Below are positions 2,590 to 63,425 of a stretch of DNA of 64,000 nucleotides, one piece after another. The stretch is taken from contig OZ024755.1 of the NCBI GenBank assembly GCA_964016885.1, forward strand, positions 40,548,001 to 40,612,000, read 5' to 3'. This DNA comes from Eledone cirrhosa (taxonomy: Eukaryota). The notes under the pieces were generated by a model. That model was not told the origin of the DNA. It made no database searches and was given only the letters and a program-made list of their open reading frames with translations. The translations under genes were made by a program, and so were the position numbers. Within the stretch, counting starts at the first letter, position 1; every line of letters starts with the position of its first letter.

Positions 2590-2789
2590 CTATTCACTGA
2601 ATTATTTTTTAATAAGCTTCCAGAGTCCTCGCTTTGCCTGGAAACTTATATGAGAATTGACTTTCCTGATGACGGGATGTTTCTCTACACCTTCTTCGGA
2701 AGATGTATCTACTCCATTCCAGAAACTAATTAGTTGGAAGTGATATTTTAGTAAGTAAGTCAATTTTATAATTTTCTTATCTTACGTCT

Positions 2790-5250: not shown

Positions 5251-5609
5251 ATAAGTAAATGGTGAGCTGTGGAAGCCTAGTTCCAACAATGTTCGTAAAT
5301 ATAAAGATGTGGTAAATATGAGACTAGAATCTGCCGCTACCGTTGTTAATGTGAGAACCTGATGAGACATGTGAGAACCTGATGAGACATAATTAGCGAA
5401 AGTAAAGCCCAGTGGAGTTCATTTCATTAACAGCGAAACGCGTGTTGGGAAAATCTGGGGAATGGAGAATGAATATGTCTGTATGTCGAATATATATATA
5501 AACAGTGTGTTAACATTTCTGGCAATATTATTACAACATTACAAGACAATATATATACACGAATGTAAATGATATTAAAGCTGAAATTCTTAAAATATAA
5601 ATGTTTAGA

Positions 5610-30429: not shown

Positions 30430-30739
30430 ATAAAATATTAAAAAAATAATGAATAAAACAATGAAACAGTTCCTTATATTAAACAAAAAAAGTTCATTAT
30501 TTAACGATCGTTTCTAGGATATATTATTATTTCTGAAGACGGCATATATATGTGTTGGTATGTATATTTAATTTTGATAGTTTGTATAATTTTGTATAAT
30601 TTTGTACATAGATCTGTTGAATATGCATGCCAATTCTAACACATATATATCCTAGAAACGATCGTTAAATAATGAACTTTTTTTGTTTAATATAAGGAAC
30701 TGTTTCATTGTTTTATTCATTATTTTTTTAATATTTTAT
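30430..30739. repeat. ~95-bp inverted repeat pair (30430-30524 / 30645-30739)
   Basis: The arms are reverse complements as read by eye. Confidence 0.93.
30526..30673 (+). ncRNA. Type I hammerhead ribozyme with very long stem II
   Basis: attattt CTGAAGA c ggcatatatatgtgttgg..ctaacacatatatatcct a GAAAC gatc GTT aaataat. 7-bp stem I. Confidence 0.75.
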
Positions 30740-31082: not shown

Positions 31083-31091
31083 TTGCGGGGA

Positions 31092-34000
31092 GGGCTGTGA
31101 TGGTTGGTGGATGGTGGTATTGGGGGGGAGATTGTGATGGTTGGTGGATGGTGGTATTGGGGGGGACTGTGATGGTTGGTGGATGGTGGTATTGGAGGGG
31201 GTCTGTGATGGTTGGTGGATGGTGGTATTGGAGGGGGTCTGTGATGGTTGGTGGATGGTGGTATTGGGGAGGAGATTGTGATGGTTGGTGGATGGTGGTA
31301 TTGGGGGGGAGATTGTGATGGTTGGTGGATGGTGGTATTGGGGGGACTGTGATGGTTGGTAGATGGTGGTATTGGGGGGGGACTTTGATGGTTGGTGGAT
31401 GGTGGTATTGGGGGGGGGACTGTGATGGTTGGTGGATGGTGGTATTGGGGGGGGACTGTGATGGTTGGTGGATGGTGGTATTGGGGCGGGGGGACTGTGA
31501 TGATTGGTAGATGGTGGTGTTGGAGGGGGACTGTGATGGTTGGTGGATGGTGGTATTGGGGGGGACTGTGATGGTTGGTGGATGGTGGTATTGGGGGGGG
31601 ACTGTGATGGTTGGTGGATGGTGGTATTGGGGGAGGACAGTGATGGTTGGTGGATGGTGGTATTGGGGGGGGGACTGTGATTGATGGTGGATGGTGGTAT
31701 TGGTGGGGACTGTGATGGTTGGTGGATGGTGGTATTGGGGGGGGGGACTGTGATGGTTGGTGGATGGTGGTATTGGGGGGGACTGTGATGGTTGGTGGAT
31801 GGTGGTATTGGGGGGGACTTTGATGGTTGGTGGATGGTGATATTGGGGGGGGACTGTGATGGTTGGTGGATGGTGGTATTGGGGAGGGGAGATTGTGATG
31901 GTTGGTGGATGGTGGTATTGGGGGGGGACTGTGATGGTTGGTGGATGGTGGTATTGGGGGGGTGGGCTGTGATGGTTGGTGGATGGTGGTATTGGGGGAG
32001 GACAGTGATGGTTGGTGGATGGTGGTATTGGGGCGGGGGGTTTGTGATGGTTGGTGGATGGTGGTATTGGGGGGGGCTGTGATGGTTGCTGGATGGTGGT
32101 ATTGGGGGGGACTGTGATGGTTGGTGGATGGTGGTATTGGGGCGGGGGGTCTGTGATGGTTGGTGGATGGTGGTATTGGGGGGGGGGGGGGCTGTGATGG
32201 TTGGTGGATGGTGGTATTGGGGAGGGGACTGTGATGGTTGGTGGATGGTGGTATTGGGGGGGCTGTGATGGTTAGTGGATGGTGGTATTGGGGGGGCTGT
32301 GATGGTTGGTGGATGGTGGTATTGGGGCGGGGTGACTGTGATGGTTGGTGGATGGTGGTATTGGGGGGGACTGTGATGTTTGGTGGATGGTGGTATTGGG
32401 AGGACTGTGAAGGTTGGTGGATGGTGGTATTGGGGGGGGGACTGTGATGGTTGGTGGACTGTGGTATTGGGGGGGCTGTGATGGTTGGTGGATGGCGGTA
32501 TTGGGCGGGACTGTGATGGTTGGTGGATGGTGGTATTGGGGGGACTGTGATGGTTGGTGGATGGTGGTATTGGGAGGACTGTGATGGTTGGTGGATGGTG
32601 GTATTGGGGGGGGGACTGTGATGGTTGGTGGATTGTGGTATTGGGGGGGCTGTGATGGTTGGTGGATGGCGGTATTGGGGGGGACTGTGATGGTTGGTGG
32701 ATGGTGGTATTGGGGGGGACTGTGATGGTTGGTGGATGGTGGTATTGGGCGGGCTGTGATGGTTGGTGGATGGTGGTATTGGGGGGGCTGTGATGGTTGG
32801 TGGATGGTGGTATTGGGGGGGACTGTGATGGTTGGTGGATGGTGGTATTGGGGGGGACTGTGATGGTTGGTGGATGGTGGTATTGGGGGGACTTTGATGG
32901 TTGGTGGATGGTGGTATTGGGGGGACTGTGATGGTTGGTGGATGGTGGTATTGGGGGGGACTGTGATGGTTGGTGGATGGTGGTATTGGGGCGGGGGGTC
33001 TGTGATTGTTGGTGGATGGTGGTATTGGGGAGGGGACTGTGATGGTTGGTGGATGGTGGTATTGGGGGGGCTGTGATGGTTAGTGGATGGTGGTATTGGG
33101 GGGGCTGTGATGGTTGGTGGATGGTGGTATTGGGGCGGGGTGACTGTGATGGTTGGTGGATGGTGGTATTGGGGGGGACTGTGATGTTTGGTGGATGGTG
33201 GTATTGGGAGGACTGTGAAGGTTGGTGGATGGTGGTATTGGGGGGGGGGGACTGTGATGGTTGGTGGATTGTGGTATTGGGGGGGCTGTGATGGTTGGTG
33301 GATGGCGGTATTGGGCGGGACTGTGATGGTTGGTGGATGGTGGTATTGGGGGGACTGTGATGGTTGGTGGATGGTGGTATTGGGAGGACTGTGATGGTTG
33401 GTGGATGGTGGTATTGGGGGGGGGGACTGTGATGGTTGGTGGATTGTGGTATTGGGGGGGCTGTGATGGTTGGTGGATGGCGGTATTGGGGGGGACTGTG
33501 ATGGTTGGTGGATGGTGGTATTGGGGGGGACTGTGATGGTTGGTGGATGGTGGTATTGGGCGGGCTGTGATGGTTGGTGGATGGTGGTATTGGGGGGGCT
33601 GTGATGGTTGGTGGATGGTGGTATTGGGGGGGACTGTGATGGTTGGTGGATGGTGGTATTGGGGGGGACTGTGATGGTTGGTGGATGGTGGTATTGGGGG
33701 GACTTTGATGGTTGGTGGATGGTGGTATTGGGGGGACTGTGATGGTTGGTGGATGGTGGTATTGGGGGGGGACTGTGATGGTTGGTGGATGGTGGTATTG
33801 GGGCGGGGGGTCTGTGATTGTTGGTGGATGGTGGTATTGGGGCGGGGGGTCTGTGATGGTTGGTGGATGGTGGTATTGGGGCGGAGGGTCTGTGATGGTT
33901 GGTGGATGGTGGTATTGGGGCGGGGGGACTGTGATGGTAGGTGGATGGTGGTATTGGGGGGGACTGTGATGGTTGGTGGATGGTGGTATTGGGGGGGACT

Positions 34001-35366
34001 GTGATGGTTGGTGAATGGTGGTATTGGGGGGGACTGTGATGGTTGGTGGATGGTGGTATTGGGGGGGGGGGGCTGTGATGGTTGGTGGATGGTGGTATTG
34101 GGGGGGACTGTGATGGTTGGTGAATGGTGGTATTGGGGGGGACTGTGATGGTTGGTGGATGGTGGTATTGGGGCGGGGGGTCTGTGATGGTTGGTGGATG
34201 GTGATATTGGGGCGGGGGGTCTGTGATGGTTGGTGGATGGTGGTATTGGGGCGGGGGGTCTGTGATGGTTGGTGGATGGTGGTATTGGGGGGGGCTGTGA
34301 TGGTTGCTGGATGGTGGTATTGGGGGGACTGTGATGGTTGGTGGATGGTGGTATTGGGGGGGGCTGTGATGGTTGGTGGATGGTGGTATTGGGGGGGACT
34401 GTTATGGTTGGTGGATGGTGGTATTGGGGGGGGGGGGCTGTGATGGTTGGTGGATGGTGGTATTGGGGGGACTGTGATGGTTGGTGGATGGTGGTATTGG
34501 GGCGGGGGGTCTGTGATGGTTGGTGGATGGTGGTATTGGGGTGGGGGGACTGTGATGGTTGGTGGATGGTGGTATTGGGGGGGACTTTGATGGTTGGTGG
34601 ATGGTGGTATTGGGGGGGACTGTGATGGTTGGTGGATGGTGGTATTGGGGGGGCTGTGATGGTTGGTGGATGGTGGTATTGGGGGGACTGTGATGGTTGG
34701 TGGATGGTGGTATTGGGGGGGGGGGCTGTGATGGTTTGTGGATGGTGGTATTGGGGGGACTGTGATGGTTGGTGGATGGTGGTATTGGGGGGGACTGTGA
34801 TGGTTGGTGGATGGTGGTATTGGGGGGGACTGTGATGGTTGGTGGATGGTGGTATTGGGGGGGGACTGTGATGGTTGGTGGATGGTGGTATTGGGGGGGG
34901 GGGGGGGGCTGTGATGTTTGTTGGATGGTGGTATTGGGGGGGACTGTGATGGTTGGTGGATGGTGGTATTGGGGGGGACTTTGATGGTTGGTGGATGGTG
35001 GTATTGGGGGGACTGTGATGGTTGGTGGATGGTGGTATTGGGGAGGACTGTGATGGTTGGTGGATGGTGGTATTGGGGGGGAGATTGTGATGGTTGGTGG
35101 ATGGTCGTATTGGGGGGGAGATTGTGATGGTTGGTGGATGGTGGTATTGGGGGGGAACTGTGATGGTTGGTGGATGGTGGTATTGGGGGGGACTGTGATG
35201 GTTGGTGGATGGTGGTATTGGGGGGGAGATTGTGATGGTTGGTGGATGGTGGTATTGGGGGGGAACTGTGATGGTTGGTGGATGGTGGTATTGGGGGGGG
35301 GGCTGTGATGGTTGGTGGATGGTGGTATTGGGGGGACTGTGATGGTTGGTGGATGGTGGTATTGGA
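31092..35366. repeat. G-rich ~34-42-bp minisatellite with variable poly-G
   Basis: Unit ctgtgatggttggtggatggtggtatt(g)n(a); explains the MVVLGG / GGWWYW ORFs. Confidence 0.97.
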
Positions 35367-35384
35367 GATGATTCCCTACCTACA

Positions 35385-38019
35385 TGGTGGTGGTGGTGGT
35401 GGTAGTGGTGGTTGTGGAGGTAGTGGGTGTAGTGTTGGCGTTAGTAGTGGTAGTTGTGGTGGTGGAGGTAGTGGTGGTAGTGTTTGTGTTGGTATTGGTG
35501 TTGGTATTGGTGTTGGTAGTGGTGGTGGCTGTAGTGGTGGTAGTGGTGGTTGTGGTGTAGATGTAAGTTGGTAGTGATAATGGTGGTGGTGGTGGTAGTA
35601 ATAGTGATAATGGTGGTGGTGGTGGTGGTGGTGGTAGTAGTGATAATGGTGGTGGTGGTGGTAATAGTAGTGATAATGGTGGTGGTGGTGGTAGTAGTAG
35701 TGATAATGGTGGTGGTGATGGTGGTGGTAGTAGTAGTGATAATGGTGGTGGTGGTGGTAGTAGTAGTGATAATGGTGGTGGTGGTGGTAATAGTAGTGAT
35801 AATGGTGGTGGTGGTGGTAGTAGTAGTGATAATGGTGGTGGTGATGGTGGTGGTAGTAGTAGTGATAATGGTGGTGGTGGTGGTAGTAGTAGTGATAATG
35901 GTGGTGGTGATGGTGGTGGTAGTAGTAGTGATAATGGTGGTGGTGGTGGTAGTAGTAGTGATAATGGTGGTGGTGGTGGTGGTGGTAGTAGTGGTGATAA
36001 TGGTGGTGGTGGTGGTAGTAGTAGTGATAATGGTGGTGGTGGTGGTGGTGGTGGTAGTAGTAGTGATAATGGTGGTGGTGGTGGTAGTAGTAGTGATAAT
36101 GGTGGTGGTGGTGGTGGTGGTGGTGGTGGTAGTAGTAGTGATAATGGTGGTGGTGGTGGTAGTAGTGGTGATAATGGTGGTGGTGGTGGTAGTAGTAGTG
36201 ATAATGGTGGTGGTGGTGGTGGTGGTGGTGGTAGTAGTAGTGATAATGGTGGTGGTGTTGGTGGTGGTGGTAGTAGTGATAATGGTGGTGGTGGTGGTAA
36301 TAGTAGTGATAATGGTGGTGGTGGTAGTAGTAGTAGTGATAATGGTGGTGGTGATGGTGGTGGTAGTAGTAGTGATAATGGTGGTGGTGGTGGTGATGGT
36401 GGTGGTAGTAGTAGTGATAATGGTGGTGGTGGTGGTAGTAGTAGTGATAATGGTGGTGGTGGTGGTGGTGGTGGTAGTAGTGATAATGGTGGTGGTGGTG
36501 GTAATAGTAGTGATAATGGTGGTGGTGGTGGTGGTGGTAGTGATAATGGTGGTGGTGGTGGTGATGGTGGTGGTAGTAGTAGTGATAATGGTGGTGGTGG
36601 TGGTGATGGTGGTGGTAGTAGTAGTGATAATGGTGGTGGTGATGGTGGTGGTAGTAGTAGTGATAATGGTGATGGTGGTGGTGGTGGTAGTAGTAGTGAT
36701 AATGGTGGTGGTGGTGGTGATGGTGGTGGTAGTAGTAGTGATAATGGCGGTGGTGGTGGTAGTAGTAGTGATAATGGTGGTGGTGGTGGTGGTAGTAGTA
36801 GTGATAATGGTGGTGGTGATGGTGGTGGTAGTAGTAGTGATAATGGTGGTGGTGGTGGTGATGGTGGTGGTAGTAGTAGTGATAATGGTGGTGGTGGTGG
36901 TGGTAGTAGTAGTGATAATGGTGGTGGTGGTGGTAGTAGTAGTGATAATGGTGGTGGTGGTGGTAGTAGTAGTGATAATGGTGGTGGTGGTGGTGGTGGT
37001 GGTGGTGGTAGTAGTAGTGATAATGGTGGTGGTGGTGGTAGTAGTGGTGATAATGGTGGTGGTGGTGGTAGTAGTAGTGATAATGGTGGTGGTGGTGGTG
37101 GTGGTGGTGGTGGTGGTAGTAGTAGTGATAATGGTGGTGGTGGTGGTGGTGGTGGTGGTAGTAGTAGTGATAATGGTGGTGGTGGTGGTGGTGGTGGTAG
37201 TAGTAGTGATGATGGTGGTGGTGGTGGTGGTAGTAGTAGTGATAATGGTGGTGGTGGTGGTGGTAGTAGTAGTGATAATGGTGGTGGTGATGGTGGTGGT
37301 AGTAGTAGTGATAATGGTGGTGGTGGTGGTGATGGTGGTGGTAGTAGTAGTGATAATGGTGGTGGTGGTGGTGGTAGTAGTAGTGATAATGGTGGTGGTG
37401 GTGGTAGTAGTAGTGATAATGGTGGTGGTGGTGGTAGTAGTAGTGATAATGGTGGTGGTGGTGGTGGTGGTGGTGGTGGTAGTAGTAGTGATAATGGTGG
37501 TGGTGGTGGTAGTAGTGGTGATAATGGTGGTGGTGGTGGTAGTAGTAGTGATAATGGTGGTGGTGGTGGTGGTGGTGGTGGTGGTGGTAGTAGTAGTGAT
37601 AATGGTGGTGGTGGTGGTGGTGGTGGTGGTAGTAGTAGTGATAATGGTGGTGGTGGTGGTGGTGGTGGTAGTAGTAGTGATGATGGTGGTGGTGGTGGTG
37701 GTAGTAGTAGTGATAATGGTGGTGGTGGTGGTAGTAGTAGTGATAATGGTGGTGGTGGTGGTAGTAGTAGTGATAATGGTGGTGGTGGTGGTGGTGGTGG
37801 TAGTAGTAGTGATAATGGTGGTGGTGGTGGTAGTAGTAGTGATAATGGTGGTGGTGGTGGTGGTGGTGGTGGTAGTAGTAGTGATGATGGTGGTGGTGGT
37901 GGTGGCGAAAGCAGTGACGTCAGCGGTGATGAAAACTATGACCACGATCATGGTAATCACTGTGACTGTGACAATGATGATGATGATGGGGAAGAGGAGG
38001 GTGGCGACGACGATGATGG

Positions 38020-40150: not shown

Positions 40151-40225
40151 ACTGGTACCTTATCTACCGACTCCTGAAGAGATGAAAAACAAAGCTGACC
40201 TGGATGAGATTTGACCTCAGAACAC
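40151..40225 (-). mobile_element. Diverged SINE core fragment
   Basis: actggtacc..ccgactcctgaagagatgaaaaacaaagctgacc..gatttgacctcagaac resembles the family 1 core. Confidence 0.65.
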
Positions 40226-40945
40226 ATTGAATCGGAGAAAAAGCTGAGACATTTGTTCTGAAACTCCAAAATATGTTTAGCAAATGTAATATTTAAAGAT
40301 ATTTTGTTTCTCAAATAAAACTATAAGAAGGAACATAAATATGGCTGAAACAATAATATAGACAGACATAGAGAAATGAAATAGACAAAAACATGGAGAC
40401 TATAAATACATGGAACAATAACTTTTACCATATTGTTGTAATAATGTTGTAGAAGACAGACAATTAAACATTGATTCGTTCTTACATCAAAGCAATATTC
40501 TATGAAAAGACATTTCGTCTCTGGCTTTTATTACATTGAAATAAATACATCATTTAAATAAATGTCCCTCAAAACTAAGATTTTCCTCAATTAAAAGCAA
40601 ATATTACCGGAATTATGGTAGATTTTCGCTGATAACGAATAGTAAATTATTTGTTGTAACTCTAAAAATATTAACCTAGTTAGTGGTGCAAGTCTTGTCG
40701 AAAATATTTACATTTAAATAATAAATATAATACACAGCATATATTTGAAAATTTATAGTTAGCTTCTTCTTGTGATTCTAAACTCCGCCAATTGCAGATG
40801 GCGCATCAACATGAGATATCTCTCTTCACAAAGTTCGATTACCAACAGCAGAGTTTAAAGAGAAAAGATCAAGCCCAGTCCATTATCAAGCTATTGTTTG
40901 GGTGCCGGTCTCTGCTTCTTTTATCCGCCAACCTTCCATCCAGGC

Positions 40946-49105: not shown

Positions 49106-49187
<82 letters not shown>

Positions 49188-49193
<6 letters not shown>

Positions 49194-49420
49194 CGTAAAA
49201 TAAGAAAATTTAAAAAAAAAATTTTTTTTTTAATTAACTTACTTAAATTTTCACTCCAACTAATTAGTTTCTGCAATGGGATAAAGACAGTTACGTAATG
49301 AACTGTTGAGAATTTCATTGCGTCATCAGGGAGGTCATTCTCAGCCAAGTCTCCAGGCAATGCGCGGACACTGGGGACTCATATAAAAATAATAATAATT
49401 CGGTAAATGGAACAGCTATC
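49188..49420 (-). mobile_element. Family B hammerhead-bearing element between two (TA)n tracts
   Basis: Homolog of 2590-2792. Confidence 0.75.
49254..49333 (-). ncRNA. Complete type I hammerhead ribozyme with extended stem II
   Basis: Minus strand reads ctcc CTGATGA c gcaatg..acagtt-cattacgt-aactgt..cattgc a GAAAC taatta GTT ggag. Confidence 0.85.
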
Positions 49421-49434
49421 GAGTACTGAATTCC

Positions 49435-49489
<55 letters not shown>

Positions 49490-49648
49490 CATATTTACGT
49501 ATGGGTTATATCGAACATTAATAATAATGTAAACAAACGGTTTTAAGCTGTGCCATGCCGGTGACCGATCGTCACCTGTTTGTTCAACACTGGCTTTGAG
49601 GAACAATCAACATGTTTCTGGGACATTACCATTCTTCAGGACTGTATA

Positions 49649-52570: not shown

Positions 52571-53017
52571 AAGCAGAGTCCCACGCTACACTGCCCATAT
52601 TTACCACCCCCGGCAGTTTATATGTCCAATTTATTAGACTACTTTCATAGTAAAAACATACGTTGTTTGAAACTCTTAACTCTTAATTACTTTCTATATA
52701 TGTGTGTGTGTGTGTGTTTAGGTGTGTGTGTAGGTGTGTGTGGGGGGGGGGGTGTAAGACTGTGTAGGTGTATATGTGTGTATGTAGGTGTGTGTCTGTA
52801 TTTGTTATTTGTGAATAAAAATAATGTGTGAATAAAAATAATTTTATAATAATATAATATTATTAATATTCATTCTTTTCTTACTGCGTTACCAAAATCT
52901 CTGATGAGCTATAAATTCCAGAATCAGACTCGATCTACTTTGGAGCCGACCGACGAAGAAACGCACGTCACGGGTGTGTAAAATGTGTACAGGAAACTAA
53001 ATTGATATTTCGTTCCC

Positions 53018-54738: not shown

Positions 54739-57700
54739 CAAGTAAGTATGTTATATATATATATATATAACGGCGATGTATTTGTTTTGCAACGTTTTTT
54801 ATATGAAATCGTGTCTTGAAACATATATTGTTATTTTAGAATCATTTTAGTCATTTATGATGCCGTTTTAGCTATTTTAGAGTACCTATTTTAGAGTCAT
54901 TTTAGTCACTTATGAAGCTGTTTTAGCCATTTTAGAGTCATTTTAGTCGTTTATGATGCCGTTTTAGATATTTTAGAGTCATTTTAGTCACTTATGATGC
55001 CGTTTTCGCCATTTTAGAGTCATTTTAGTCGTTTATGGTGCCGTTTTAGAGTCATTTTGGTCATTTATGATGCCGTTTTAGCTATTTTAGAATCATTTTA
55101 GTCATTTATGATGCCGATTTAGTTATTTTAGTATCATTTTAGTCACTTATGATTCCGTTTTCGCCATTTCAGAGTGTTTTTAGTCATTTATGGTGCCATT
55201 TCAGAGTCATTTTAGTCATTTATAATGCGTTTTAGAGTCATTTTAGTCATTTATGATGCCGTTTTAGCTACTTTAGAGTCATTTAATCATTTATGATGCC
55301 GTTTTAGCCATTTTAGAGTCATTTTAGTCATTTATGTTGTCGTTTTCGCCACTTTAGAGTCATTTTAGTCAATTATGATGCCGTTTTAGCCATCTTGGAG
55401 TCATTTTAGTCATTTATAATGCCGTTTTCTTCATTTTAGAGTCATTTTAGACATTTGTGATGCCGTTTTACCTATTTAAGAGTCATTTTAGTCATTTGTG
55501 ATGTCGTTTTAACTATTTTAGAGTCATTTTAGTCATTTATGGTGCTGTTTTCGCCATTTTAGAGTCATTTTAGTCATTTATGGTGCCGTTTTATCTATTT
55601 TAGTGTCATTTTAGTCATTTATTATGTCGTTTTCGTTAGTTTAGAATAATTTTAGTCATTTATGATGCCGTTTTAGCTATTTAAGAGTCATTTTAGTCAT
55701 TTGTAATGTCGTTTTAGCTATTTTAGAGACATTTCAGTCATTTATGATGCCGTTTTAGCAATTTTAGTGTCATTTTAGTCATTTATGATACCGTTTTCGC
55801 CATTTTAGAGTCATTTTAGTCATTTATGGTGCCGTTTTAGAGACATTTTAGTCATTTATGATGCCGTTTTAGCTATTTTAGAGTCATTTTAGTCATTTAT
55901 GATGCAGTCTTCCCTATTCTAGAGTCATTTTAGTCATTTATGTCGCCGTTTTAGCTATTTCAGAGTCTTTCTAGTCATTCATGATGCCGTTTTAACGATT
56001 TTAGAGTCATTTTAGTCATTTATGGTGCCGTTTTAGAGTCATGGCATCATAAATGACTAAAATGACACTAAAGTAGCTAAAACGGCACCATAAATTACTA
56101 AAATGACTCTAAAATGGCGAACGGCATCAGAAATGACTAAAATGACTGTAAAGTGGCGAAATCTTCAACATAAATGTATAAAATGACTCTGAAATAGCTA
56201 AAACGGCATAATAACAGATTAAATGACTCTAAAACGGCATCATAAACGACTAATATGACCCTAAAATGGCTAAAAGGGCATCATAAATGACTAAAATGAC
56301 TCTAAAATAGCTACTCTAAAATAGCTAAAACGGCACCTTAAATGACTGAAATGACTCCAAAATGGCAAAAATGGCACCATAAATAACTAAAATAACCCTA
56401 AAATGGCTAAAACGGCATCATAAATGACTAAAATGACTCTAAAATAGCTAAAACGACACCATAAATAACTAAAATGATGAAAACGGCATCATAAATGACT
56501 AAAATAACTCTAAAATAGCTAAAACGGCGACATAAAACACTAAAATGACTCTAAAATAGCTAAAACGGCACCATAAATGACTAAAATGACTCCAAAATGG
56601 CGAAAACGGCACCATAAATAACTAAAATGATGAAAACGGCATCATAAATTACTAAAATGACTCTAAAATGGCTAAAACGGCATCATAAATTACTAAAATG
56701 ACTCTAAAATGGCGAAAACCGCACCATAAATGATTAAATGACTTTTAAATTGCTAAAATCGATCATAAATGAATAAAATGACACTTTATTGCCTAAAACT
56801 GCATCATAAATGACTGAAAATGACCCCAAAATGGCTAAAACGGCATCATAAATGACTGAAATAGCATCATAATTGAAGAAAATGATACTAAAACGGCGTC
56901 ATAAATGATGAAAATGACTAAAACGGCAACATAAATGACTAAAATGACTCTAACATGGCTAAAACGGCATCATAAATGACTAAAATGACTCAACATAGCT
57001 AAAACGGCATCATAAATGACTAAAACGGCATCATAAATGACTCAAATGACTCTAAAATAGCTAAAACGGCGCCATAAATGAGTAAAATGACTCTAAAATC
57101 GCGAAAATGCCATCATAAATGACTAAAATGGCATCATAAATGACTAACATGACACTAAAATAGCTAAAACGGCATCATAAATGACTAAAATGACTCTAAA
57201 ATAATTCAAACGCCATAATAAATGACTAAAATGATTCTAAAATAGCTATAACGGCATCATAAATGATGAAAATGACTAATATGCTGAAAACGACACCATA
57301 GATGACTAAAATGACTCTAAAATGTCAAAAACGGCATCATAAATGATTAAATGACTCTAAAATAATTAAAACGGCATCATAAATGACGAAAATTACTCTA
57401 AAATAGCTAAAAAGGTCATAAATGACTAAAATGACTCTAAAATAGCTACTCTAAAATAGCTAAAACGGCACCATAAATGGCTAAAATGACTCAAAAATTG
57501 GGAAAACGGAACCATAAATGACTAAAATGACTCTAAAATATCTAAAACGGCATCATAAATGACTAAAATTACTCTAAAATAGCTAAAACGGCATCATAAA
57601 TTACTAAAATGACCCTTAAATAGCTAAAACGGCAACATAAATGACTAAAATGACTCTAAAATGGCGAAAACGGCACCATAAATTACTAAAACGGCATCAT

Positions 57701-57980
57701 AAATTACTTAAATGAGACTAAAATAGCTAAAACGGCATCATAAATGACTAAAATGACTCTAAAATAGCCTAAACGGCATCATAAATGATTAAAATGACTC
57801 TAAAATGGCTAAAACGGCATCATAAATGACTAAAATGACACTTAAAAGGCGAAAACCGCACCACATATGATTAAATGACCTTTAAATTGCTAAAACCGAT
57901 CATAAATGAATAAAATGACTCTTAAATGCCTAAAACTGCATCATAAATGACTGAAAATGACCCCAAAATGGCTAAAACGG

Positions 57981-58493
57981 TGTAGTGACCTACATTCCGC
58001 GGGCTCACATACATTCTCTGTGCGTGATTTGGTTCAGCTCAGCCAATCAGCGCCAGTAGAAGAGGATGTATCCCTACGCGTTCTGAGGGAGAAATAGCCC
58101 GCAAAGATTTGAGGACGCTATCACTTCCAGCTAGACCGTGCTAAGGTAAAACACCACTTGTTCTTTTGCTCCGCCAGCACAAACAATATGTAAAGACACA
58201 ACAAACATTACTACGGAATTGGCTAAACGCCTCAGCCAGTCGACCGTATTTTCTCTTGTAATCTTAATTGATTTGTTTTATTTCTCTTGGCATGCCAGCT
58301 CAACCTCTGTTAATAAATAATGTAAAACCAAGCTAAAGTCGTTGTCGATATTCCTATCATATCTTTCTACCAAACCTGGTTTCTCGTGGCAACACTACAA
58401 CTCTCGAAATATACTTCTCTGCTAAATTGGTACTTATATACCTCAACCAAATTGGTGACTTATATTCAACAAAGAGAAACATTCCTTTACTTT
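57981..58493 (+). mobile_element. Solo-LTR-like insert (LTR 57981-58399 plus 94 bp), copy 1
   Basis: TGTAGTG...CACTACA inverted termini, CCAAT and AATAAA. Whole insert flanked by aacgg; empty site at about 56830-56860. Confidence 0.75.
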
Positions 58494-60705
58494 AACGGCA
58501 TCATAAATGACTGAAATAGCATCATAAATGAAGAAAATGATACTAAAACGGCATCATAAATTATGAAAATGACTAAAAGGGCATCAGAAATGACTAAAAT
58601 AAGTCTAAAATATCGAAAACGGCATCATTAATGACTAAAATGACTCTAAAATGGCTAAAACGGCATCATAAATGACTAAAATGACTCAACATAGCTAAAT
58701 CGGCATCATAAATGACTAAAACGGCATCATAAATGACTAAAATGACACTAAAATAGCTAAAACGGCATCATAAATGACTAAAATGACTCTAAAATGGCGA
58801 AAACGTCACCATAAATGACTCAAATGGCATCATAAATGAAGAAAATGATACTAAAACGGCATCATAAATGATGAAAATGATTAAAACGGCATCATGAATG
58901 ACTAAAATGACTCTGAAATGGCGAAAACAGCACCATAAATGACTAAAACGGCATCATAAATGATTTAATGAGACTAAAATAGCTAAAACGTCATCATAAA
59001 TGACTGAAATGACTCTAAAATGGCAAAAACGGCACTATAAATGACTGAAATAACATCATAAATGAAGAAAATGATACTAAAACGGCATCATAAAAGATGA
59101 AAATGACTAAAACGGCGTCATAAATGACTAAATGACTCTAAAATAGCTAAAACGGCGACATAAATGACTAAAATGACTCTAAAATAGCTAAAACGGCACC
59201 ATAAATGACTAAAATGACTCCAAAATGGCGAAAACGGCACCATAAATAACTAAAATGATGAAAACGGCATCATAAATTACTAAAATGACTCTAAAATGGC
59301 TAAAACGGCATCATAAATTACTAAAATGACTCTAAAATGGCGAAAACCGCACCATAAATGATTAAATGACTTTTAAATTGCTAAAATCGATCATAAATGA
59401 ATAAAATGACACTTTATTGCCTAAAACTGCATCATAAATGACTGAAAATGACCCCAAAATGGCTAAAACGGCATCATAAATGACTGAAATAGCATCATAA
59501 TTGAAGAAAATGATACTAAAACGGCGTCATAAATGATGAAAATGACTAAAACGGCAACATAAATGACTAAAATGACTCTAACATGGCTAAAACGGCATCA
59601 TAAATGACTAAAATGACTCAACATAGCTAAAACGGCATCATAAATGACTAAAACGGCATCATAAATGACTCAAATGACTCTAAAATAGCTAAAACGGCGC
59701 CATAAATGAGTAAAATGACTCTAAAATCGCGAAAATGCCATCATAAATGACTAAAATGGCATCATAAATGACTAACATGACACTAAAATAGCTAAAACGG
59801 CATCATAAATGACTAAAATGACTCTAAAATAATTCAAACGCCATAATAAATGACTAAAATGATTCTAAAATAGCTATAACGGCATCATAAATGATGAAAA
59901 TGACTAATATGGTGAAAACGACACCATAGATGACTAAAATGACTCTAAAATGTCTAAAACGGCATCATAAATGATTAAATGACTCTAAAATAATTAAAAC
60001 GGCATCATAAATGACGAAAATTACTCTAAAATAGCTAAAAAGGTCATAAATGACTAAAATGACTCTAAAATAGCTACTCTAAAATAGCTAAAACGGCACC
60101 ATAAATGGCTAAAATGACTCAAAAATGGGGAAAACGGAACCATAAATGACTAAAATGACTCTAAAATATCTAAAACGGCATCATAAATGACTAAAATTAC
60201 TCTAAAATAGCTAAAACGGCATCATAAATTACTAAAATGATCCTTAAATAGCTAAAACGGCATCATAAATGACTAAAATGACTCTAAAATGGGTAAAACA
60301 GCTTCATAAATGACTAAAATGGCTCTAAAATAGCTACTCTAAAATAGCTAAAATGCCAACATAAATGACTAAAATGACTCTAAAATGGCGAAAACGGCAC
60401 CATAAATTATTAAAACGGCATCATAAATGACTTAAATGAGACTAAAATAGCTAAAACGGCATCATAAATGACTAAAATGACTCTAAAATAGCCTAAACAG
60501 CATCATAAATGATTAAAATGACTCTAAAATGGCTAAAACGGCATCATAAATGACTAAAATGACACTAAAATGGCGAAAACCGCACCACATATGACTAAAA
60601 TGACTTTTAAATTGCTAAAACCGATCATAAATGAATAAAATGACTCTTAAATGCCTAAAACTGCATCATAAATGACTGAAAATGACCCCAAAATGGCTAA
60701 AACGG

Positions 60706-61218
60706 TGTAGTGACCTACATTCCGCGGGCTCACATACATTCTCTGTGCGTGATTTGGTTCAGCTCAGCCAATCAGCGCCAGTAGAAGAGGATGTATCCCT
60801 ACGCGTTCTGAGGGAGAAATAGCCCGCAAAGATTTGAGGACGCTATCACTTCCAGCTAGACCGCGCTAAGGTAAAACACCACTTGTTCTTTTGCTCCGCC
60901 AGCACAAACAATATGTAAAGACACAACAAACATTACTACGGAATTGGCTAAACGCCTCAGCCAGTCGACCGTATTTTCTCTTGTAATCTTAATTGATTTG
61001 TTTTATTTCTCTTGGCATGCCAGCTCAACCTCTGTTAATAAATAATGTAAAACCAAGCTAAAGTCGTTGTCGATATTCCTATCATATCTTTCTACCAAAC
61101 CTGGTTTCCCGTGGCAACACTACAACTCTCGAAATATACTTCTCTGCTAAATTGGTACTTATATACCTCAACCAAATTGGTGACTTATATTCAACAAAGA
61201 GAAACATTCCTTTACTTT
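60706..61218 (+). mobile_element. Solo-LTR-like insert, copy 2 (segmental duplicate)
   Basis: Nearly identical to 57981-58493 with the same flanks; offset 2725. Confidence 0.75.
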
Positions 61219-61725
61219 AACGGCATCATAAATGACTGAAATAGCATCATAAATGAAGAAAATGATACTAAAACGGCATCATAAATTATGAAAATGACTA
61301 AAAGGGCATCAGAAATGACTAAAATAAGTCTAAAATATCGAAAACGGCATCATAAATGACTAAAATGACTCTAAAATGGCTAAAACGGCATCATAAATGA
61401 CTAAAATGACTCAACATAGCTAAATCGGCATCATAAATGACTAAAACGGCATCATAAATGACTAAAATGACACTAAAATAGCTAAAACGGCATCATAAAT
61501 GACTAAAATGACTCTAAAATGGCGAAAACGTCACCATAAATGACTCAAATGGCATCATAAATGATGAAAATGATTAAAACGGCATCATGAATGACTAAAA
61601 TGACTCTAAAATGGCGAAAACAGCACCATAAATGACTAAAACGGCATCATAAAAGATGAAAATGACTAAAACGGCGTCATAAATGACTAAATGACTCTAA
61701 AATAGCTAAAACGGCGCCATAAATG

Positions 61726-62222
<497 letters not shown>

Positions 62223-63425
62223 AACGGCAGCATAAATGACTAAAATGACTCTAAAATAGCTAAGACTGCATTATAAATTACTTAAATGACTCTTAAATAG
62301 CTAAAACGGCATCATAAATGACTAAAATGATTCTAAATTAGCGAAAACGGCATCATAAATGACTAAAATGACTCTAAAATAGCTAAAACGGCACCATAAA
62401 TGACTAAAATGCCTCTAAAATGGCGAAAACGGCACCATAAATGACTAAAATGACCCGTAAATAGTAAAAACGGCATCATAAATGACTAAAATAACTCTAA
62501 AATAGCTAAAACGGCGACATAAATGACTAAAATGACACTAAAATAGGGAAAACGGCACCATAAATGACTAAAATGACTCTAAAACGGTTAAAACGGCATC
62601 ATAAATGACTGAAATAGCATCATAAATGAAGAAAATGATACTAAAACGGCATCATAAATTATGGAAATGACTAAAAGGGCATCAGAAATGACTAAAATAA
62701 GCCTAAAATATCGAAAACGGCATCATAAATGACTAAAATGATTCTAAAATGGCTAAAACGGCATCATGAATGACTAAAATGACTCAACATAGCTAAAACG
62801 GCATCATAAATGACTAAAACGGCATCATAAATGACTAAAATGACACTAAAATAGCTAAAACGGCATCATAAATGACTAAAATGACTCTAAAATGGCGAAA
62901 ACGGCACCATAAATGACTCAAATAGCATCATAAATGAAGAAAATGATACTAAAACGGCATCATAAATGATGAAAATGATTAAAACGGCATCATAAATGAT
63001 GAAAATGATTAAAACGGCATCATAAATGACTAAATGACTCTAAAATAGCTAAAACGGCATCATAAATGACTAAAATGACTCTAAAATGGCGAAAACGGCG
63101 CCATAAATGACTAAAACGGCATCATAAATGACTTAAATGAGACTAAAATAGCTAAAACGGCATCATAAATGACTAAAATGACTCTAAAATGGCGAAAACG
63201 GCACCATAAATGACTCAAATAGCATCATAAATGAAGAAAATGATACTAAAACAGCATCATAAAAGATGAAAATGACTAAAACGGCGTCATGAATTACTGA
63301 AATGACTCTAAAATAGCTAAAACGGCGTCATGAATGACTAAATGACTCTAAAATAGCTAAAACGGCGCTATAAATGTTCGTAACAAGTGAGAAATACTCG
63401 AGAGGCAGAAGGGGAAATTAACACG

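Follow-up and report, generated by a model that had tools for sequence, protein, structure and literature searches.

Two truncated copies of a putative non-LTR retrozyme with a long-stem hammerhead motif and Penelope-like insertion features in Eledone cirrhosa

The window analysed here, a stretch of 64,000 nucleotides of the Eledone cirrhosa genome, contains two 5'-truncated insertions, each with a single hammerhead motif, that come from two subfamilies of one repeat, ~74% alike. Copy 1 (2404-2791, + strand) belongs to the GGGATG subfamily, with a unit of ~522 nt, and consists of unit positions 191-522 followed by ~1-57; it is 98-99% identical to natural full units, and its 3' end lies at a position that we call site A, on a (TA)43 microsatellite (2792-2877, +) that is the inferred target. 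Copy 2 (49189-49439, - strand) belongs to the GCAATG subfamily (unit ~553 nt) and also ends at site A, with (TA)n on either side, at 49115-49188 at its 3' end and as a second run, 49438-49489, at its 5' end (both - strand). It is 97-98% identical to natural units upstream of the cut and ~74% identical to subfamily 1. Both copies enter (TA)n after TTACGTCT(C/T)TT, in agreement with the homologous flanks and common end described in an initial annotation of this DNA. Neither copy alone would be able to release a unit-length RNA.

The hammerhead motif of copy 1 spans 2660-2741 on the + strand and, like that of copy 2 (about 49254-49335, - strand), was read directly in the window. Stem I pairs ACTTTC (2660-2665) with GGAAGT (2736-2741), and the core CTGATGA (CUGAUGA, 2666-2672) leads into a bipartite stem II (2673-2721), composed of C2673.A2721 at the base, stem IIa (GGGATG 2674-2679 / CATTCC 2715-2720), a pyrimidine-rich internal loop and a distal hairpin (2686-2707). 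The basal C and A form a mismatch or, alternatively, represent one extra base on either side of G10.1-C11.1. The distal hairpin comprises CTTC-TTCG-GAAG (2691-2702), with a UUCG loop, and a TACA/TGTA helix that the initial annotation had not listed. After A2721 come the GAAA of the core (2722-2725), the palindromic stem III ACUAAUUAGU (2725-2734), read as C-TAATTA-G after GAAA, and the triplet GTT (2733-2735); by analogy with the hammerhead consensus the cut is predicted 3' of 2735. GAGAA (2652-2656), in the 5' flank of stem I, is the predicted 5' strand of a pseudoknot, the 3' strand of which would be UUCUC (2681-2685) on the 5' side of the internal loop; in the isolated stem II domain the latter is unpaired with a probability of 0.99.

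In copy 2 the hammerhead including the pseudoknot flank occupies 49254-49343 (-). Its stem I is CTCC/GGAG plus a bulged C and an A-U pair, the core CTGATGA lies at 49329-49323, stem IIa pairs GCAATG (49321-49316) with CATTGC (49278-49273), the distal helix is ACAGTT/AACTGT, and the triplet GTT (GUU) is found at 49260-49258. The candidate pseudoknot, UGAGAAU (49343-49337) against AUUCUCA (49313-49307), is complementary over 7 bp. The two copies were said to share their core letters while their stems differ and still pair, and this could be confirmed letter for letter.

Upstream of the ribozyme, a TCACGTG(A/T) motif at ~2499-2506, which we take to be E-box-like, and a GCC(T/A)GG hairpin recur across the subfamilies seen, the former at homologous unit positions; both are possible promoter or RT-binding elements. 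Elsewhere in the window, 30533-30666 (+) holds a hammerhead-like motif with a 113-nt stem II between C and A, a palindromic stem III (AC-GAUC-GU), GUU and a 7-bp AU-rich stem I, and the 20 bases before it are an inverted copy of its own 3' end. A short hammerhead-like motif at 49609-49639 (-), ~200 bp upstream of copy 2, has CUGAAGA, a 3-bp stem II, GAAAC-AU-GUU and stem I CAGUC/GAUUG; similar short motifs, with A...A around GGG/CCC, were seen at two other loci (L007 and L338). Further CUGAUGA...GAAAC...GUH matches at 5359-5446, 40174-40277 and 52901-52969 (+) are sequence matches only. Most of the window is satellite DNA (7242-28465, 31087-37905 and 54832-63376), with a 17-kb array of an 18-20-nt unit, arrays of 29, 35 and 41 nt, and (TGG)n.

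The 3.0-Gb genome was searched with the pattern CTGATGAC-N35-65-AGAAACTAATTAGT, which gave 8,669 exact matches and none for the reversed control pattern; the motif is thus not there by chance. Another 446 matches carry a different base after the core and, among the matches listed, mostly belong to an A subfamily. CTGATGA alone is found in the window 10 times against an expectation of 6.4, which is no enrichment. BLAST with copy 1 returned 2,837 first-look candidates, the best full-length ones among 40 scored being 98-99% identical, and with copy 2 1,681 first-look candidates, the best scored full-length ones being 95-98% identical. From these repeats 87 distinct natural units of 508-571 nt (GC 32-38%) could be defined, arranged head to tail with the ribozymes on one strand and holding one type I hammerhead motif each. 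No conserved ORF was found in them, the longest frames across the 87 units being mostly no longer than in shuffled sequences (one reaches 148 codons); at one locus (L051) an open frame of 226 codons was rejected as a gene for lack of conservation. Five units folded as circles are more stable than shuffled sequences (z -3.5 to -7.2, 30 shuffles each), with 57-67% of bases paired. Tandem units of a few hundred bp, GC below ~45%, a non-coding sequence and a highly self-paired circular fold, by which retrozymes are recognised, are all found here, and the repeat is very probably a non-LTR retrozyme. A metagenome scan with a loose pattern gave, among at least 119 matches, one with plausible stems, which is GC-rich and outside the retrozyme family; literature searches directed at octopus and other cephalopods found no report of the family. 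No RNA data set appeared among the listed holders of the sequence, and the three listed runs, all from one sample, consist of contigs in which the unit, the other subfamilies and the neighbouring repeats are covered without distinction and which are thus uninformative about expression.

The hammerhead itself has the type I core, CUGANGA...GAAA...UH, with stems II and III closed and stem I open, and H is U in 237 of 240 copies. The GUU triplet, initially considered unusual, fits the NUH rule given in PMC3088659, because H stands for A, C or U. On the other hand, the long bipartite stem II and the mismatch at its base, noticed in the two window copies, turn out to be traits of the family: the base of stem II is C.A in 202, A.A in 31 and U.A in 5 of the 240 copies, and the next pair is G-C in 235/240. 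The standard 10.1-11.1 pair is thereby missing from its place directly beside the core. We read N.A as insertions flanking G10.1-C11.1 on both sides, a variant resembling the known cases of U.U at the stem II base (PMC3088659). The latter work, in its accessible parts, discarded hits with such a base mismatch unless activity had been measured, and an extra base after A9 is a known trait of the hammerheads of Penelope-like elements (PLEs; PMC4209133); no report of C.A or A.A at this place was found in the open-access literature. Rfam yields no hammerhead match on the window at the gathering threshold, nor on a dimeric copy at E<=10, for which the length of stem II is a likely reason. Folded in isolation, the stem II domain is more stable than its shuffles (z -2.2 for copy 1 and -4.0 for copy 2); for the complete ribozyme no such difference is seen (z -0.3 and -1.2). 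Catalytic activity of this hammerhead is predicted, with good though slightly lesser confidence than the retrozyme assignment.

Covariation was scored in stems IIa and III of 32 representatives, natural copies drawn from 62 clusters of 176 copies, in which the window copies stand for their own clusters. In these helices 98.3% of cells pair and 36 cells are changed on both sides; none of 500 shuffles, which ignore relatedness, reaches either value, and slid controls pair in 24-56% of cells. The number of pairs with a double change (4) does not stand out from the shuffles, 160 of the 500 reaching it. On an unrooted FastTree phylogeny, made for 75 of the 87 natural units from sequence other than the ribozyme, stem IIa shows five clade-level double changes: three switches among U-A, C-G, A-U and G-C at pair 2 and two between G-C and U-A at pair 5. 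Stems IIa and III, the scored helices, thus covary, as the initial annotation had expected of a larger alignment. Its claim of selection on RNA structure is borne out by the covariation in this far larger set; such selection acted on mobile master RNAs and not on the two genomic copies, which are truncated single-ribozyme insertions. Stem I and the distal hairpin were viewed in alignments and folds; the distal hairpin varies freely in sequence and length, yet forms in the folds, and the self-duplex of the 10-nt stem III palindrome has a stability of -9.0 kcal/mol.

Immediately 5' of stem I lies a purine run whose complement is found on the 5' side of the internal loop of stem II, over at least 5 bp in 32/32 representatives. 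Counting was done by anchored scripts, because the MAFFT alignment set the internal loop in mixed registers. Among the 198 copies with an intact flank (42 of the 240 were dropped as truncated), 170 have a Watson-Crick run of at least 5 bp, compared with 2 and 34 in two controls; counting G-U pairs as well gives 176, and 102 and 84 in the controls. The GAGAA flank is accompanied by a UUCUC loop in 160/173 copies, and the GGAAA flank, typical of a subfamily with ~519 pattern matches, by UUUCC/UUUCU in 24/32 and UUCUC in 1/32. An old, degenerate 7-copy family (L201-L207), distant from the others, opposes (GA)AGAAU(U) to (A)AUUCUU(C); it has a longer stem IIa, GUC in 3/7 copies and a palindromic stem III based on CCAUGG, as in dimer-acting hammerheads. 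Only two independent lineages change both sides, the complement being kept in each. The loop strand is otherwise unpaired (mean 0.88 over the 32 representatives), and the putative helix is more stable than that of the same bases with the 3' flank in 32/32 (mean -5.6 vs -0.4 kcal/mol). Cognate strands score -5.9 in the main group, vs -3.4 and -4.0 for non-cognate ones, and -5.1 vs -3.0 in the distant group; in the GGAAA subfamily the cognate is barely ahead (-3.7 vs -3.5). Other windows of the unit pair equally well in a median of 1.2% of cases.

Perreault 2011 takes pairing of 4 bp or more between the outer parts of stems I and II as the mark of such a pseudoknot, and a complement of this kind is present here. 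Stem I-stem II pseudoknots are predicted in ~40% of hammerheads and are needed for fast cleavage, according to PMC3088659. We consider it rather likely that the GAGAA/UUCUC complement is a pseudoknot. An extended stem I was rejected as the partner of GAGAA, since none of the representatives shows more than weak pairing of it with the 3' flank; a distal CUUA/UAAG helix and the pseudoknot may be present together.

A second abundant family, with ~2,470 candidates (typified by L188:478-580 and also seen at L404-L433), has a long branched stem II, A...A around G-C, a ACUCGAGU palindrome, GUC and (TA)n ends. It shows only a faint match to the retrozyme, in the tail region, and a GGC/GCC complement at the same spacing as the retrozyme flank and loop, just 3 bp long and weakly supported; no tandem ribozyme pair was seen in its 30 loci. 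Additional long-stem-II motifs were observed at loci L412 and L415.

The 3' ends of the retrozyme arrays fall on two sites, site A at ~+57 and site B at ~+175 from the cut (522-nt unit): of 221 unique 3' ends, 92 are at A, 87 at B and 42 elsewhere, and 133 of 207 anchored ends enter (TA)n. Moreover, 49 inverted two-armed insertions were found, in which the arms end at A and B in 31 cases and never both at A or both at B, the remaining 18 having an arm that was assigned to neither site. Partial tandems, an inverted 5'-truncated copy, a 30-40 bp tail at a single end and a (TA)n bias are reported for PLEs in PMC8557442, and the retrozyme likewise presents partial tandems, an inverted 5'-truncated arm, a one-end tail and a microsatellite target. 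This strongly suggests that the retrozyme is mobilised by a PLE, a reading that we hold as firmly as the retrozyme assignment. The 5' junctions are near-uniform (172 junctions) and do not pile up at the predicted cut (8 junctions in 19 hits at +1 and 6 in 30 at +3 among the matches listed, 6 in 16 at the control +7). Because of this evenness, the template was usually not an RNA starting at the cut, but a ligated circle or an uncut multimer; even junctions fit a circular template and equally an uncut one.

At ~200 loci with flanks to ~1.5 kb, no autonomous element with the ribozyme or the ends of the retrozyme was found, and no ORF for RT and GIY-YIG between pseudo-LTRs (pLTRs), as expected of an autonomous PLE, was present in flanks of that extent. 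GIY-YIG- and RT-coding pieces are common in neighbouring (TA)n tracts and belong to other elements. One GIY-YIG PLE family (L128, L148 and L165) has its own minimal hammerhead, CUGAAGA-G-GUCAC...GUGAC-GAAA, and ends on (TA)n at two sites ~50 nt apart; it is a candidate for the helper type, without evident sequence likeness to the retrozyme ends. At L129:1050-1150 the 5' end of a retrozyme unit is joined to a PLE-like ORF piece, also present inverted just upstream, in what is possibly a template switch.

The repeat, its unit structure, the stem II covariation, the two fixed 3' ends and the inverted arms are direct observations, and taken as a whole they are, in our judgement, likely to be best explained by truncated copies of a non-coding tandem retrozyme that is predicted to cut itself after GUU and is probably inserted into (TA)n by PLE enzymes. 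The retrozyme context, the palindromic stem III, the likely pseudoknot and the fixed insertion ends had escaped the initial annotation. In the proposed mechanism, transcripts of tandem copies would be cut once per unit after GUU, the active form being either a monomer whose stem III has 3 bp or two ribozymes joined through the 10-nt palindrome. A Watson-Crick pseudoknot of 5-8 bp would likely take the place of the usual non-canonical loop 1/loop 2 contact, and the distal hairpin would serve to present the internal loop to it. Unit-length RNAs may then be ligated to circles, like those of coral, mussel and axolotl retrozymes. A Penelope-type RT with its GIY-YIG nuclease would start synthesis from nicked (TA)n, using one or other of the two AU-rich sites (~+57 and ~+175); reverse transcription through the cut site would give copies exceeding one unit, and priming of the second target end an inverted arm ending at the other site.

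Three other explanations have to be weighed against this one. The unit could be the pseudo-LTR of an autonomous Penelope-like element, of which the copies would be 5'-truncated remains and the hammerhead a device trimming the 5' end of the element mRNA. The insertion anatomy is indeed that of PLEs, the unpaired base after A9 and the longer helix II are traits of PLE hammerheads (PMC4209133), and the unit is directly joined to a sense PLE-like ORF piece at two loci (L119 and L129). However, copies that extend upstream beyond one unit meet another unit and not an ORF, as the 87 full units show; the PLE at L119, tried and rejected as an autonomous partner, has an unrelated 3' end in 11 other copies, its junction being a one-off microhomology; and at L128, L148 and L165 the adjacent PLEs have another, minimal hammerhead and are set apart by (TA)n. 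From ~200 loci with flanks to ~1.5 kb, we regard this origin as quite improbable, although a rare autonomous parent may exist. Scarcely more probable is that the motif has kept its structure as a relic that cleaves very slowly or not at all, with N.A blocking cleavage and the copies deriving from uncut tandem transcripts. The mismatch adjoins the core, no excess of 5' ends is seen at the cut, and 8 of 9 Xenopus elements were inactive in vitro, cleavage of predicted retrozymes being found for 1/9 (bioRxiv 10.64898/2026.07.22.740005). Yet every subfamily retains the core and GUH despite 25-30% divergence of the surrounding sequence, only 43 scattered matches show a change at the first loop position of stem III, the sequence-distant second family keeps the A...A-flanked G-C, palindromic stem III and GUC, and U10.1.U11.1 mismatches are active elsewhere (PMC3088659, PMC7229834).

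The remaining alternative concerns the pseudoknot and is unlikely to a lesser degree. It accepts a real cleaving retrozyme and takes GAGAA/UUCUC for something other than a stimulatory pseudoknot, namely a conserved site for a protein, a fold that inhibits cleavage, or a flank belonging to a long stem I whose loop contact is of the classical non-canonical kind. The small number of lineages in which the helix has changed leaves room for it, the distal CUUA/UAAG helix can lengthen stem I and is used in MFE folds, and a U-A-Y-Y-C motif, conserved on the 3' side of the loop, might engage in a non-canonical contact. Against these points stand the poor pairing of GAGAA with the 3' flank and the loop strand left free, together with the preservation of the complement in both known changes; furthermore, a stem I of 5-6 bp and a 6-bp stem IIa are the lengths seen in the pseudoknotted hammerheads of PMC7936874. 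The preferred reading remains a truncated, probably PLE-mobilised retrozyme with a likely pseudoknotted hammerhead.

The 2020 review PMC7761336, as far as its accessible text goes, states that animal retrozyme repeats show no motif indicating a helper element, and a preprint (bioRxiv 10.64898/2026.07.22.740005) ties retrozymes to PLEs by co-occurrence and pLTR similarity, the mechanism remaining to be worked out. Here, thousands of young copies with a PLE insertion signature and an exact one-end-each rule define two candidate priming sites; if true, this record of two-ended priming would amount to direct evidence, at the level of mechanism, for PLE enzymes as the movers of animal retrozymes. 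This ribozyme broadens the consensus of hammerheads, goes unrecognised by Rfam and supplies natural compensatory variants. Going further, and with the chances about evenly balanced, one may propose a widened hammerhead type, without counterpart in the papers searched: an active type I ribozyme with G10.1-C11.1 between unpaired bases and a long helix II with a Watson-Crick pseudoknot from loop to flank, common to several retrozyme families of the lineage and missed by Rfam, with genomic copies that preserve the trace of Penelope-type priming from both target ends, at two fixed sites of a circular RNA.

Hammerheads, pseudoknotted hammerheads and retrozymes are each an already known class. With the metazoan non-LTR retrozymes described by Cervera and de la Pena 2020 (PMC7229834) and by Li, Clavereau and Pollet (bioRxiv 10.64898/2026.07.22.740005), the present family shares non-coding tandem units with one type I hammerhead each, GC below 45%, thousands of copies, a self-paired circular fold and co-occurrence with PLEs. 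Its units of 508-571 nt exceed the 170-400 nt given in PMC7229834 and lie inside the 51-972 bp range of the preprint; its stem II domain of ~50 nt stands where those retrozymes have 4 bp. Inverted arms, two fixed 3' ends and (TA)n targeting are not among the features that the accessible parts of either source describe for retrozymes.

The hammerheads of newt satellite 2 and axolotl retrozymes (PMC7229834, PMC6155905) also have a palindromic stem III allowing dimeric cleavage and a mismatch at the base of helix II (U.U in HHR_Amex2); here the palindrome is longer (10 nt), the mismatch is C.A or A.A instead of U.U, and helix II is long and bipartite. PLEs and their minimal hammerheads (PMC4209133; PMC8557442, including the non-autonomous Chlamys element MRC1) share the extra base after A9, the conserved G10.1-C11.1 and the palindromic stem III, as well as the insertion anatomy of partial tandems, inverted 5'-truncated arm, one-end tail and (TA)n bias; going by the accessible parts of these sources, the retrozyme differs from them in having no ORF, a full 3-bp stem III, an extra A before G12 and a tail of ~120 nt vs 30-40 bp. 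Finally, the HDV-like hammerheads of toad and termite likewise contain a helix split by an internal loop and capped by an extra hairpin, proximal stems of 5-6 bp, and a loop 5' strand that Watson-Crick pairs with the periphery of the other helix. The retrozyme hammerhead is their mirror image, a type I motif with the extension on helix II and the open 5' flank of helix I as the partner, and is distinguished from them by C.A/A.A at the stem II base and by its carrier, a genomic retroelement.
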